Assembly: GCA_049602795.1 (NCBI GenBank)
Contig: JBMYRY010000001.1
Location: 1 to 27,077, forward strand
Direction of reading: 5' to 3'
Source: Bradymonadia bacterium
Lineage (GTDB): Bacteria > Myxococcota_A > Bradymonadia > UBA7976 > UBA1532
DNA: 27,077 nt
Positions 8,065-12,971 of the stretch are shown here, piece by piece (the first letter of the stretch is position 1; each line of letters starts with the position of its first letter). The position numbers and the translations under genes are program-made. Under the pieces are notes generated by a model. That model was not told the origin of the DNA. It saw nothing but the letters and a program-made list of their open reading frames with translations, and did no database searches.

Positions 8065-9372
8065 ATGATGACGAACTACACCGCGCGACAACAAGCTCAA
8101 GAGGCTCGAAGTGCGAGTCGCGCACTCAACCAGCTTTCATCAAATGAGCGTGCACAACTCCTAAATGATGTCGCCAATGCACTCCTCACTCAACAGGCGC
8201 GAATTATATCTGCCAACCAAGAGGACCTTGCCGATGCTCAACAAGCGGTCAATGAAGGGCGTCTCGCGACCGAGTTATACAATAGGCTCAAGATTGACAG
8301 CGCTCGACTCGAATCGCTTGCTGAAGGCATTAGAAGTATTGCCAATATGCCAGAGCCCATTGGTCAAATTCTCGTTGATCGAGACCTTGGTGAAGGCCTG
8401 CATTTGCAACAAGTCTCAGCACCGCTCGGTGTTGTACTCGTCATTTTCGAAGCACGTCCAGACGCATTGCCACAAATTGCAGCGCTCGCGCTGCGAAGTG
8501 GAAATGGCTTGATTCTCAAAGGTGGTCGTGAAGCTCGACGATCCAATGCCGTGTTGCATGATGTAATCGGTGAAGCGATTGAGACCTTTGTACCGCGCAC
8601 CGTCATCGGTCTCGTCGAAACGAGAGAAGAAATTCATGACTTGCTCGCACTCGACGACGTGATTGATTTAGTCATCCCAAGAGGATCCAATGCGCTCGTC
8701 CAGATGATTCAATCAAACACCAAAATCCCCGTAATGGGGCATGCCGACGGCGTATGCCACATCTACTTGGATGAAAGTGCTACTCTGGCTCAAGCAGTCG
8801 CGATCATTAACGACTCCAAATTAGATTACCCGGCGGCATGCAACGCGGTTGAGACGCTTCTTGTCCATCGAAAATGGCTCGAACAATATACGTTTGAGGC
8901 ACTGCAAGACGGATGCGCCGCCATCCTATTCCGAACAGCAGGTATTGACCCAACGCTTGCACAACTACCTCAAGCACCCGCTCTACATCATGAATACGGA
9001 GATGCTCAGCTCACGATCCACATTGTAGATACCTTGGATGACGCAATCGACCACATTCATCAATACGGGTCCGGACACACGGAATCCATTATTACGAATG
9101 ACACTGAGAAGGCTGATACATTTCTGAAGCGCGTGGATAGCGCCTCGGTCTTTTGTAATGCCAGTACTCGATTCGCCGACGGCTATCGATACGGACTTGG
9201 AGCCGAAGTTGGCATCAGCACCTCCCGTCTCCATGCACGGGGACCGGTTGGCGTAGACGGTCTCCTCACCACACGTTGGCTGATGCGCGGTAACGGACAT
9301 ACGGTAGGCGCCATCAAACGAGGTGAATGGGTCTTTGACTGGCGAGAACGACACATCGAAAGGCGAGACTGA
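8065..9372 (+). CDS. proA: Gamma-glutamyl phosphate reductase (glutamate-5-semialdehyde dehydrogenase)
   Basis: Motifs PLGVVLVIFEARP, SGNGLILKGGREA, DLVIPRGS, GHADGVCHIY, catalytic ACNAVETLL, GSGHTESI and NASTRFADG...GAEVGIST...HARGPVG. SD-like AAGGA at 8050-8054. Confidence 0.96.
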   Translation: MMTNYTARQQAQEARSASRALNQLSSNERAQLLNDVANALLTQQARIISANQEDLADAQQAVNEGRLATELYNRLKIDSARLESLAEGIRSIANMPEPIGQILVDRDLGEGLHLQQVSAPLGVVLVIFEARPDALPQIAALALRSGNGLILKGGREARRSNAVLHDVIGEAIETFVPRTVIGLVETREEIHDLLALDDVIDLVIPRGSNALVQMIQSNTKIPVMGHADGVCHIYLDESATLAQAVAIINDSKLDYPAACNAVETLLVHRKWLEQYTFEALQDGCAAILFRTAGIDPTLAQLPQAPALHHEYGDAQLTIHIVDTLDDAIDHIHQYGSGHTESIITNDTEKADTFLKRVDSASVFCNASTRFADGYRYGLGAEVGISTSRLHARGPVGVDGLLTTRWLMRGNGHTVGAIKRGEWVFDWRERHIERRD

Positions 9373-9374
9373 CG

Positions 9375-12300: not shown

Positions 12301-12971
12301 GTGCAAAGGCGGGCGGACCAAACTACTTGAAAATGTTCGTGCACCAAAACCCGATCGGGGCTGCCTCCCTCGCCAATGGTCAGGTACACCCAATCCTACA
12401 CCGCCTTGTAGAGTCATGGCGTGCGCTCAGTTTCGAGCTCACCGCCGCAGCGCGCTTGTTTTCAGACGAGATTACCCAGTTGAACAGGCGATACGACCCT
12501 TGCCAGATCTCGGGTCAAGACAACCTGTTCCGTTATCAGTTTTCACTGCGAGTCCTCGTGCTCGCCTTTGAGGGATTCGATCCAATAGACCTCGCACGCG
12601 TGCACCTAGCCCTTGCCATATGCGGAAATCCATACCAAATTATCATCGCAGGTCAACCAAGCTATTCAAATGCGGTTCAACTTCGCCACGTGCTATCAAA
12701 TGATCTACTCGACACACCGTGGGACGCCGCGATCGACGCCAAGCAACACGACCACATTCGCATTCTAGGAACTCCACCAGAGACACTCTACAACCGTTCA
12801 ACCTCTGCGCGCTGCATCGACAACACACCAGTCTGTCATGGGATAGAGGAACTCAGAAAGTACACAGTAGAACAAAGCATCTCACTTGACTATCACCGCT
12901 ATGGGCATCTCGGTCTGCGCGAAAAGTCTTTAGAGTCGGTCGTCGGTACGGTTACGCCATTCGCTCCATAG
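9375..12971 (+). CDS. putA: Bifunctional proline dehydrogenase / L-glutamate gamma-semialdehyde dehydrogenase (PutA); no N-terminal DNA-binding domain recognised
   Basis: PRODH motifs LDMEAYRDL, GIVLQAYLPDS, RLVKGANL, ASHNLFD and YLVRRLDEN. ALDH motifs PWNFP, ETGGKN, catalytic GQKCSA, EFFGP, YGLTAG and QPFGG. Confidence 0.95.
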   Translation: MASERTLIEGWSRQEQGILKEIETHLATVEEMVLSPTQLNQATSMIAGLCLALSKHLETKAEKKQSDQLSQLMNDDLGQLFSTLLTDRVPRLADGADVTRQARNVLSKTGVPASMPLLDQCQLMGLKMFGTVAPKLIGNAVRKRIRKEAQTFLMPGEQQALSAGVKSLKASGVQVNVNQLGEEVLGDIEARKHMDAYLELLNTESIDTISVKSSSICAQLSVLAFDTSLHRICDALRELYRAARGENGQSDKLVMLDMEAYRDLEMTFTAFKTVLDEPEFLSLKAGIVLQAYLPDSHDVHQGLIEWAKARRARGGSAIQLRLVKGANLAVEKIESDIAGWSIPIFPSKTDVDASFKLMVERALTSEHLSNVKVGIASHNLFDVAYALCLTKQRHLTEGVHFEVLSGMAGGLSRVLLGLGCRVLVYSPAVTDANLHAAVAYLVRRLDENTADQNFLRHSFNMSVGDDAWLSQERGFVESRKRSLTLSLKRRRRSRLEPARETAEGFSNAPDTDFTLRENRTWLAEKITTQHQASIRTIRSSHYDASESHVTRDGYDPSAPNSTPYTIELATCAELEQMLTTAAASTSSWSTTSPEKRVSLLRTLADHIELRRGEIIAALMLDGGKAVIDADAEVSEAIDFCRYYAHRYNRLMADEQHAYTARGVTVVTPPWNFPFAIPLGGVAAALVTGNPVILKPAIETPYIAHVLFELCQKAGIPGGILQFVVTDDETATPLITDSRVKTVVLTGGTSTAHLFKRIRPDLHLLAETGGKNATIVSHFADQDLAINAIIQSAFGHAGQKCSATSLLIITDALAQDSSFRSHLIDAAKSMSVGPAWSLDARVTPLINPPQGDLLKALTTLDEGESWWLEPKVSPENPRLWSPGIKGPVQPGSFSHLTEFFGPVLSVMVAKDLSQAIEWANATPYGLTAGFHSLDESEQRQFLETMNAGNLYVNRTTTGAIVQRQPFGGRKASCFGPGAKAGGPNYLKMFVHQNPIGAASLANGQVHPILHRLVESWRALSFELTAAARLFSDEITQLNRRYDPCQISGQDNLFRYQFSLRVLVLAFEGFDPIDLARVHLALAICGNPYQIIIAGQPSYSNAVQLRHVLSNDLLDTPWDAAIDAKQHDHIRILGTPPETLYNRSTSARCIDNTPVCHGIEELRKYTVEQSISLDYHRYGHLGLREKSLESVVGTVTPFAP

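Follow-up and report, generated by a model that had tools for sequence, protein, structure and literature searches.

A tightly spaced proA-putA gene pair, probably acquired laterally, in a Bradymonadia genome

Introduction

The genes for the biosynthesis and the catabolism of one amino acid are normally under separate control. For proline, catabolic put loci pair putA with a gene for a transporter or a regulator (putAP, putR), and we know of no put locus in which putA is paired with proA. On the biosynthetic side, glutamate 5-kinase (ProB) is feedback-inhibited by proline, and gamma-glutamyl phosphate reductase (GPR, ProA) carries out phosphorylating aldehyde dehydrogenase chemistry that is reversible in principle. 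GPR belongs to the ALDH superfamily, and its substrate, glutamyl phosphate, is unstable and requires coupling of the kinase to the reductase (PMC8963878). Type B PutA proteins have 1100-1200 residues, including a C-terminal domain of 100-200 residues, and have no RHH DNA-binding domain (PMC5293562), and PutA channels P5C/GSA (PMC6017737; PMC5293562). One long enzyme of solved structure, 5ux5, is the 'class 3B' PutA of Corynebacterium freiburgense (Korasick et al. 2017 J Biol Chem 292:9652, cited in PMC6017737). In eukaryotes, a proline/P5C cycle of PYCR and PRODH is established (background in PMC8205077).

Here, we describe a 27,077-nt stretch of DNA, referred to below as the window, from a marine Bradymonadia bacterium (assembly GCA_049602795.1, contig JBMYRY010000001.1), in which proA is directly followed by putA. 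The family of ProA, and most likely its role, are those of the proBA and proC-proB-proA operons (E. coli proBA; contig C89 of genome G220), but the unit in the window lacks the kinase gene and has the catabolic putA in the position immediately after proA.

The proA-putA locus

The features of the locus, numbered from the first letter of the window, are the following.

7758-8064, no strand assigned: non-coding stretch of 307 nt 5' of proA, the presumed promoter region of the pair
8065-9372, + strand: proA, 435 aa (open reading frame listing)
9370-9377, + strand: proA/putA junction, TGA (9370-9372), CG, ATG (9375), read ...GAGAC TGA CG ATG GCA...
9375-12971, + strand: putA, 1198 aa (open reading frame listing)
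9867-10745, + strand: PRODH (flavin) domain, PutA residues 165-457, Pfam Pro_dh, with substrate-binding motif YLVRRLDEN
11034-12341, + strand: GSA/P5C dehydrogenase (ALDH) domain, PutA residues 554-989, Pfam Aldedh, with Glu766 (AETGGKN) and Cys800 (GQKCSA)
12372-12968, + strand: C-terminal domain (~200 aa) of the kind usual in type B PutAs, placed by alignment
12972-13135, no strand assigned: spacer of 164 nt between putA and the DUF1592/PSD gene, the likely end of the proA-putA unit

The exact open reading frames and the junction sequence confirmed the initial annotation, which had placed the proA stop at 9372 and the putA start at 9375, leaving 2 nt between them, and domain and profile searches bore out its remark that the window holds neither proB nor proC. 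The putA start is secure, since an in-frame TGA at 9336 rules out an earlier start and the N-terminus of PutA is conserved, with the same first residue in its three closest homologues (P0002, P0003, and P0004). A chimeric assembly was considered and rejected, as independent DNA contigs from two other studies span the junction (X2 record 3, 9063-10468; X3 record 12, 9232-9403), GC content is flat over it, and contig C1 fits the MAG (G000) in GC and tetranucleotides, ranking 15 of 236. ProA and PutA are thus encoded by a real and tight two-gene unit.

The two genes display the signs of an operon: a common strand, minimal spacing, and no terminator-like site on the + strand between them. Moreover, the predicted RNA fold over the junction is no better than that of shuffled sequences (z = -0.01), giving no indication of a structured spacer. 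From the 2-nt gap and the lack of a terminator or structured spacer, it is likely that proA and putA are transcribed together, probably as one transcript, in line with the initial proposal of co-transcription. In the one RNA library with matching data (metatranscriptome X20), three short contigs, which cannot show transcript ends, mapped to 10270-10459 and 12610-12821 within putA and to 13127-13200 in the next gene, with none crossing the junction. Upstream of proA, no open reading frame of at least 80 aa was found in 7758-8064 and no sigma-70-like site was detected on the + strand, although this consensus may not apply to Myxococcota; an Rfam search around the unit returned no match at E<=1 and so no known RNA element or attenuator, though neither of these two negatives is informative. 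In the spacer 3' of putA, no stable fold was found, and a promoter-like site is present at 13056-13085 (+).

The gene downstream of putA (DUF1592/PSD) is unrelated to proA-putA; a PSD gene lies downstream of putA in L039 as well, and the neighbours in the window include DUF1585-1595 and DUF1552 genes.

Identity of ProA and PutA

Based on profile matches, proA is predicted to encode a stand-alone gamma-glutamyl phosphate reductase (glutamate-5-semialdehyde dehydrogenase) of P5CS-like type. The protein matched TIGR00407 over its full length at 444.8 bits (cut-off 317.45) and PRK00197 at 474.9 bits (cut-off 289), while its score on the fused P5CS model TIGR01092, 545.6 bits, fell below the cut-off of 796.75 and came from model positions 285-697 only. 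The open frame spans just 443 aa, with no fused N-terminal glutamate 5-kinase domain, and a search of the MAG, including the region 5' of proA, found no kinase remnant. The best solved relatives were a plant P5CS (8j0e, 461 bits) and the human enzyme (2h5g, 421 bits); together, the reductase halves of eukaryotic P5CS (8j0e, 8y2h, 2h5g, 7f5t) scored 392-461 bits, compared to 254-286 bits for solved bacterial ProAs. The window ProA shares with the eukaryotic enzymes a deep clade in the tree and the catalytic Cys motif, with Cys259 in AACNAVETLLVH (nt 8839-8841) aligning to the catalytic Cys region of P5CS, but, unlike them, it is a 435-aa protein that stands alone. Among 19 other genomes with this type of ProA, the kinase gene lies directly upstream in 16 and is fused in two. 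G220 has the arrangement proC-proB-proA and no PRODH, and fused kinase-reductases of 806-808 aa are found in the sister-family genomes G025 and G026.

Several observations bear on the role of ProA. Of the 132 columns conserved in proB-linked ProAs, 129 are identical in all seven putA-linked ProAs, the three switched columns being L77I, K81R, and H426W. In the MAG, which is 71% complete, proA is the only GPR gene and proB was not found, an absence best read as an assembly gap; its proC lies on contig C270, is of another type, and is 28% identical to the proC of the metagenome contig L059. Genome G314 (95% complete) encodes a single copy each of proB (393 bits, on a contig other than that of its proA-putA cluster), proA, proC (within the cluster), and putA. 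A second proA was sought in both genomes and not found in either. Given the single gene copies in G314, the conserved positions, the catalytic Cys, and a dehydrogenase site belonging to PutA itself, ProA is most likely an ordinary biosynthetic enzyme.

PutA is predicted to be a bifunctional proline dehydrogenase/GSA (P5C) dehydrogenase of type B. Both catalytic domains occur in one chain (Pro_dh, 196.6 bits; Aldedh, 322.7 bits), and the length of 1198 aa, the roughly 200 aa past the ALDH domain, and the absence of any RHH or DNA-binding Pfam match all agree with this type. A score of 410 bits on PRK11904, under the cut-off of 747, marks the protein as a member of a divergent branch. It is 56% identical end to end to the G314 PutA, and its C-terminal domain aligns to the end with that protein and with long PutAs of Polyangiales, but is missing from the ~1000-aa PutAs of family kin, for which the matches stop near residue 1000. 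The best solved relative was 5ux5, a long PutA with a C-terminal domain (634 bits). YLVRRLDEN, Glu766, and Cys800 align with both 5ux5 and the G314 PutA, and the window protein has in common with 5ux5 the order of PRODH, ALDH, and C-terminal domains, the lack of RHH, a length of about 1200 aa, the catalytic Glu/Cys, and the PRODH motif. It differs from 5ux5 in that the match falls in two stretches with the C-terminal part only weakly matched, and in its placement in a Myxococcota clade adjoining Polyangiaceae enzymes. The idea that ProA replaces a dead dehydrogenase site in PutA was rejected, as Glu766 and Cys800 are present.

Distribution and ancestry of the pair

Adjacency of proA and putA was surveyed in the class, in 401 genomes sampled from the phylum (with ProA as the starting point), in the order of G314, and at long-PutA loci of Myxococcota and Campylobacterota. 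The initial annotation had named an adjacency unique to this genome as contrary to its reading; instead, the pairing recurs in G314, as proC-proA-putA (an overlap of 11 nt, then a gap of 64 nt), in L059, also as proC-proA-putA, and in four further contigs (lengths 13981, 22824, 8090, and 18842) with both ProA and PutA, which were matched by equal length and so show co-location rather than order. The proA-putA spacer is 2 nt in the window versus 64-66 nt in G314 and L059. All partnered ProAs fall within one 23-row clade (support 94), and all partnered PutAs within one 17-row clade (support 96). Both genes are present in 33 relatives from the class, and the pairing was found in none of these; a check of 31 further loci with a long-type PutA (Polyangiales, Campylobacterota) did not reveal it either. 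In the order of G314, it was likewise not found in 10 of 11 genomes with a long PutA. Additionally, the contigs of P0002 and P0003, the closest PutA homologues (68-69% identity), measure 36 kb and 145 kb, and no ProA contig of equal size was found for them, so that even close relatives may not all have the pairing. The pairing is therefore rare but not unique, recurring within a single, narrow marine Myxococcota clade, and our literature searches found no description of a proA-putA operon. Among the window, G314, and L059, the proA-putA pair is the sole synteny kept, at 54-62% protein identity, and the neighbours upstream and downstream all differ.

Both proteins are of types foreign to the family of the MAG. 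ProA is 35-41% identical to the ProAs of the family versus 61% to that of G314, and PutA is 33-37% identical to the family PutAs versus 56% to that of G314. RpoB displays the opposite pattern, with 75-77% identity to family kin (against 38-39% for ProA and 33-35% for PutA in this comparison) versus 62% to G314 and 58% to G220, which implies that the pair probably entered the lineage of the MAG by lateral transfer, and as a unit, presupposing that contig C1 was binned correctly. PFK and DUF1552 were also tried as markers of contig affiliation and were dropped in favour of RpoB because they gave a blurred answer, the closest match being G043, a bin from the same family with 7% contamination. The named relatives of ProA, PutA, and PFK are Myxococcota, and a planctomycete origin, at first suggested by the DUF1585-1595 and DUF1552 neighbours, was dropped for this reason.

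Discussion

We consider it reasonably probable that the proA-putA unit derives from proC-proA-putA, was acquired laterally, and consists of textbook enzymes whose direction of flux is controlled post-transcriptionally. A proC-proB-proA biosynthetic operon would likely have lost its kinase gene and gained putA, giving rise, in a single origin within a marine Myxococcota lineage, to a proC-proA-putA 'P5C-handling' cluster, of which proA-putA would be a trimmed form. Lateral transfer would have brought the unit into the lineage of the MAG, where it would replace the enzymes usual for the family, a ProA that stands alone and a PutA of the short type A. Glutamyl phosphate from an unlinked ProB would be reduced by ProA as the cell's only GPR, and proline would be converted to glutamate by PutA via two active sites of its own. 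Expression of both genes together would be tolerable because the direction of flux would be set after transcription: with plentiful proline, feedback on ProB would deprive ProA of its unstable substrate, and P5C/GSA would be channelled inside PutA. The neighbours have all changed, yet the pair has been kept, and this could point to a functional link tighter than the explanation given here assumes.

A neutral origin, which we regard as unlikely but worth weighing, would have putA landing behind proA by rearrangement in one ancestor, the two genes then being inherited and transferred together as neighbours with no selected co-regulation; putA may in that case have a promoter of its own inside proA, at the 3' end of that gene, or, for the relatives, within their spacers of 64-66 nt. 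The retention of this pair as the only synteny among three loci of 54-62% identity with differing neighbours argues against such an origin, as do the apparent co-transfer of both genes into a foreign family and their shared strand without a terminator. A neutral origin would, on the other hand, fit the limitation of the pairing to one clade, the failure to find it in the 33 class relatives, at the 31 long-PutA loci, and in the 10 of 11 genomes described above, and the possible lack of a proA partner for P0002 and P0003, and the difference in spacing (2 nt versus 64-66 nt) implies that tight coupling is not conserved.

The remaining alternatives assign the pair a distinct chemistry. It is improbable, in our estimation, that it serves a proline/P5C redox cycle, a reading raised by the initial annotation. 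In such a cycle, ProC would reduce P5C with NADPH, the PRODH half of PutA would oxidise the proline again and pass electrons to the quinone pool, NADPH electrons would thereby enter respiration, and ProA would top up the P5C pool. The older cluster form, proC-proA-putA, renders such a cycle slightly more plausible, as both cycle enzymes, P5C reductase and proline dehydrogenase, are encoded in one operon-like block, likening it to the established eukaryotic cycle; however, this co-encoding is true only of G314 and L059, and in the window proC lies outside the unit, the proC of the MAG being of the different type noted above. The bacterial PRODH differs from its eukaryotic counterpart in being fused to, and channelling into, a GSA dehydrogenase, and the intact GSA dehydrogenase site of PutA, with a C-terminal domain supporting channelling, argues against the release of P5C (PMC5293562). 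No sequence feature demands a cycle, our literature searches found no bacterial precedent for one, and the cluster proC of G314 must serve biosynthesis, since that genome has no other. We likewise give little credence to the broader proposal that proC-proA-putA is itself a bacterial cycle, with ProC and PRODH shuttling NADPH electrons to quinones, ProA replenishing P5C, and joint selection keeping the pair together, although, if true, selection for joint function would explain why the pair stays together and moves between lineages. Very improbable is the suggestion of the initial annotation that ProA runs oxidatively as a catabolic branch, converting GSA, Pi, and NADP+ to glutamyl phosphate. 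ProB would then yield ATP and glutamate from this product, so that the branch would conserve energy. Reversible chemistry and the adjacency of proA and putA would permit it, but ProA is the sole GPR in both the MAG and G314, and its catalytic Cys and conserved positions (129 of 132) make it indistinguishable from proB-linked biosynthetic enzymes, an outcome that the annotation itself had named as contrary to its suggestion. Moreover, PutA already has a functional-looking and seemingly channelled GSA dehydrogenase, the kinase gene needed for harvesting the acyl phosphate is precisely the one lost from the cluster, ProB would suffer feedback inhibition by proline under catabolism, and glutamyl phosphate is unstable without coupling to the kinase (PMC8963878).

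As it stands, the locus is an uncommon, laterally moving arrangement of conventional enzymes rather than new chemistry, and both proA and putA can be named with confidence in annotation. The sole proA, and in relatives the sole proC too, shares an operon-like block with the sole putA, and this block has apparently moved between families. It thus offers a concrete candidate for asking whether bacteria run a proline/P5C cycle, and a natural test of the extent to which post-transcriptional control, through feedback on ProB and channelling within PutA, can replace transcriptional separation.

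Structure of the proA-putA junction

The initial annotation had placed the end of proA 2 nt before the start of putA, with no proB or proC in the window, and this arrangement was confirmed by the open reading frames, the junction sequence and independent contigs:

8065-9372, + strand: proA, 435 aa
9370-9372, + strand: TGA stop of proA, followed by CG and the ATG at 9375
9375-12971, + strand: putA, 1198 aa

ProA scored above the curated model cut-offs (TIGR00407, 444.8 bits vs 317; PRK00197, 474.9 vs 289), and PutA contains Pro_dh (residues 165-457) and Aldedh (residues 554-989) domains. 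Because an in-frame TGA at 9336 blocks any start further 5', putA cannot begin further upstream, and its assigned start gives the same N-terminus as the three closest homologues. GC content is flat over the join, which is spanned by contigs from two other studies (X2, 9063-10468; X3, 9232-9403). A scan of the window found no proline gene besides proA and putA; genes of a glucan-utilisation operon lie upstream of proA, and a DUF1592/PSD and DUF1552 gene pair lies downstream of putA.

Elsewhere in the window, a gene at 18620-23113 (- strand) encodes a protein of 1497 aa that carries five or more Cys-rich metal-binding repeats of the MopE type (PF11617); MOSC and thioesterase genes of the same orientation come next. 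At 23282-24974 (- strand), two YbjQ-family genes stand in tandem with no gap between them (24036-24530 and 24531-24974), and an M48 peptidase gene overlaps the first.

Both genes appear atypical for their lineage

The ProA matched the reductase half of eukaryotic P5CS (8j0e, 461 bits; 2h5g, 421) better than solved bacterial ProAs (254-286), and is only 35-41% identical to the ProAs of family and class relatives. In the ProA tree, those relatives branch by taxonomy within a deep clade of their own, while the window ProA groups with eukaryotic P5CS, proteins from Myxococcota metagenome-assembled genomes (MAGs) and a fused kinase-reductase from the sister family. Among 113 genomes of the class, this type was found only in the window's MAG and as two such fused forms. 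The latter (L104:7859-10282 in G026; L113 in G025) are 806-808 aa long and carry an amino-acid kinase domain fused with a P5CS-like reductase, representing a P5CS-type protein in Myxococcota that shares a deep clade with eukaryotic P5CS, and may bear on the origin of the eukaryotic enzyme. A ProA homologue on a 120,658-nt ENA contig (P0124), the nearest relative, is 88% identical over residues 1-369 but wholly divergent in its last 38 residues, which could reflect a frameshift or rearrangement at the proA 3' end.

The PutA is type B as defined previously (PMC5293562), with 1198 aa, a C-terminal domain of ~200 aa and no RHH domain, whereas PutAs of family relatives are type A (~1000 aa, 33-37% identical). 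The nearest named PutAs are from Polyangiales (42-45%) and Sulfurimonas-like Campylobacterota (33-36%). By these comparisons, neither gene is of a type usual in the lineage. A class relative, G032, also carries a long PutA (C177; L137, 2754-6164, - strand); since this groups with Sulfurimonas-type and Chlamydiae-labelled enzymes outside the window clade, albeit on long branches that make its placement unsure, it suggests that long PutAs were acquired repeatedly in the class.

The pairing is rare and clade-restricted

In 33 relatives with both genes, proA and putA were always on separate contigs, apart from one closed chromosome on which 1.7 Mb separates them. The flanks fetched around 31 genome loci encoding a long PutA, which reached 10 kb at most and less on short contigs, contained no proA, and only one of 25 metagenome loci, L059, had proA beside long putA. 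The adjacency is nonetheless not unique to the MAG, as it recurs within proC-proA-putA in L059 and in G314, a more distant Myxococcota genome:

L059, 891-1694: proC
L059, 1687-2994: proA, 62-63% identical to window ProA
L059, from 3061: putA, 54% identical to window PutA
L135 (G314), 8598-9395: proC
L135 (G314), 9385-10677: proA, overlapping proC by 11 nt
L135 (G314), 10742-14299: putA, after a 64-nt gap; 56% identical to window PutA from end to end

A 401-genome sample of the phylum yielded 18 other genomes with this ProA type, and G026 from the class search brought these to 19. A kinase gene lies directly upstream of proA in 16 and is fused to it in two; in G314 alone, proA stands between an upstream proC and a downstream putA. 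Long PutA occurs in 11 of 18 genomes of G314's order, adjoined by proA only in G314. ProA and PutA homologues matched on contigs of equal size (13981, 22824, 8090 and 18842 nt), indicating that four more contigs carry both genes. The two closest PutA homologues (P0002 and P0003) are on long contigs whose sizes match no ProA-homologue contig, and the pairing may therefore be missing from some of even the nearest PutA relatives. Since all partnered ProAs fall within one 23-row clade (support 94), all partnered PutAs fall within one 17-row clade (support 96) and the surveys were otherwise empty, the pairing appears to have arisen once and to be restricted to a narrow clade. Literature searches found no paper describing a proA-putA operon.

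The 95%-complete G314 genome has proB, proC, proA and the PRODH gene in exactly one copy each, with a full-length proB on contig C14 (393 bits) and the others contiguous on C26. G220, another distant Myxococcota genome with the same ProA type, has proC-proB-proA and no PRODH. The cluster would likely have passed from proC-proB-proA through proC-proA-putA to proA-putA in the window lineage. Directly after putA in G314, on the same strand (L135:14335-15655), are genes for a pyroglutamyl peptidase (Peptidase_C15) and an S33-type alpha/beta hydrolase, tying this cluster also to scavenging of peptide-derived proline and 5-oxoproline.

Genomic context and probable lateral transfer

The window is the entire contig C1 of a 3.35-Mb MAG (674 contigs, 71% complete). 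C1 fits the bin, with a GC of 0.516 (bin, 0.506 +/- 0.011) and the 15th closest tetranucleotide distance among 236 contigs; the named relatives of its ProA, PutA and PFK are Myxococcota MAGs, which confirms the phylum. The MAG has one proA and one proC, the latter on C270, different from the proC of the clusters and slightly nearer family proC genes (35-38% identity) than that of G314 (29%) or L059 (28%). Neither the ProB model nor a tblastn search with a kinase of the P5CS type found a glutamate 5-kinase in this 71%-complete assembly; since proB is present in 26 of 26 high-quality relatives and ~29% of the MAG's markers are missing, this is best read as an assembly gap. In seven family genomes (G003, G004, G006, G009, G014, G018 and G019), a single contig carries proB and proA at a distance of 16-20 kb, which is a loose but conserved linkage and not a proBA operon.

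Over its N-terminal 501 aa, the MAG's RpoB is closest to that of family members (G004, 77%; G001, 75%), followed by G314 (62%) and G220 (58%). ProA (family, 38-39%; G314, 61%) and PutA (33-35%; 56%) reverse this pattern, which suggests that the pair entered the family as a unit from a G314-like lineage, provided that C1 is correctly binned. The assembled 71% of the MAG yielded no proA or putA of the family type. The window has no neighbour in common with G314 or L059 beyond the pair, and has putA and the downstream PSD gene in common with locus L039. G043, a family genome with 7% contamination, has the closest PFK (71%) and DUF1552 (65%) to those of the window and two long-type PutA fragments (40-43%; contigs C467, C525, C826 and C656 together). 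The three other members of its genus have short PutAs and no such PFK, and G043 could be either a mixed bin or a second recipient.

Transcription and direction of flux

Given a shared strand, a 2-nt gap, no terminator-like site between the genes, no Rfam element at the unit and a junction fold no better than shuffled sequence in the window, G314 and L059, the pair fits one transcript that would start in the 307-nt region upstream of proA. Co-transcription, proposed initially, is likely on these features. The exact matches in a marine metatranscriptome were three short contigs: two fall within putA, one within the next gene and none at the junction. Contigs of this kind cannot define transcripts.

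The initial annotation also offered two alternatives, a proline/P5C redox cycle or a ProA that runs oxidatively as an energy-conserving catabolic branch. From 21 relatives that are proB-linked, fused or eukaryotic, we took the ProA columns with at least 90% conservation. All seven putA-linked ProAs keep the conserved residue at 129 of these, and only three columns are switched (L77I, K81R and H426W), all of them outside the catalytic Cys259 motif, so that ProA does not look repurposed. PutA retains the PRODH motif YLVRRLDEN, Glu766 and Cys800, and ProA is therefore not needed to dispose of the semialdehyde. Moreover, glutamyl phosphate is unstable, and the kinase normally hands it straight to the reductase (PMC8963878); the gene lost from the cluster, however, is that of the kinase. 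Together, these observations weigh against an oxidative branch. A proline/P5C cycle may operate and gains some plausibility from the inclusion of proC in the older cluster form, but PutA enzymes channel their intermediate (PMC6017737; PMC5293562), and the cluster proC is the only one in G314 and so must serve biosynthesis.

The pairing is real, rare, clade-restricted and apparently mobile, and both partners seem ordinary, ProA as a biosynthetic enzyme and PutA as one of type B. In the most economical reading, the direction of flux would be set by ProB feedback and PutA channelling, not by separate transcription, and the significance of the pairing is modest unless a proline/P5C cycle turns out to be real.
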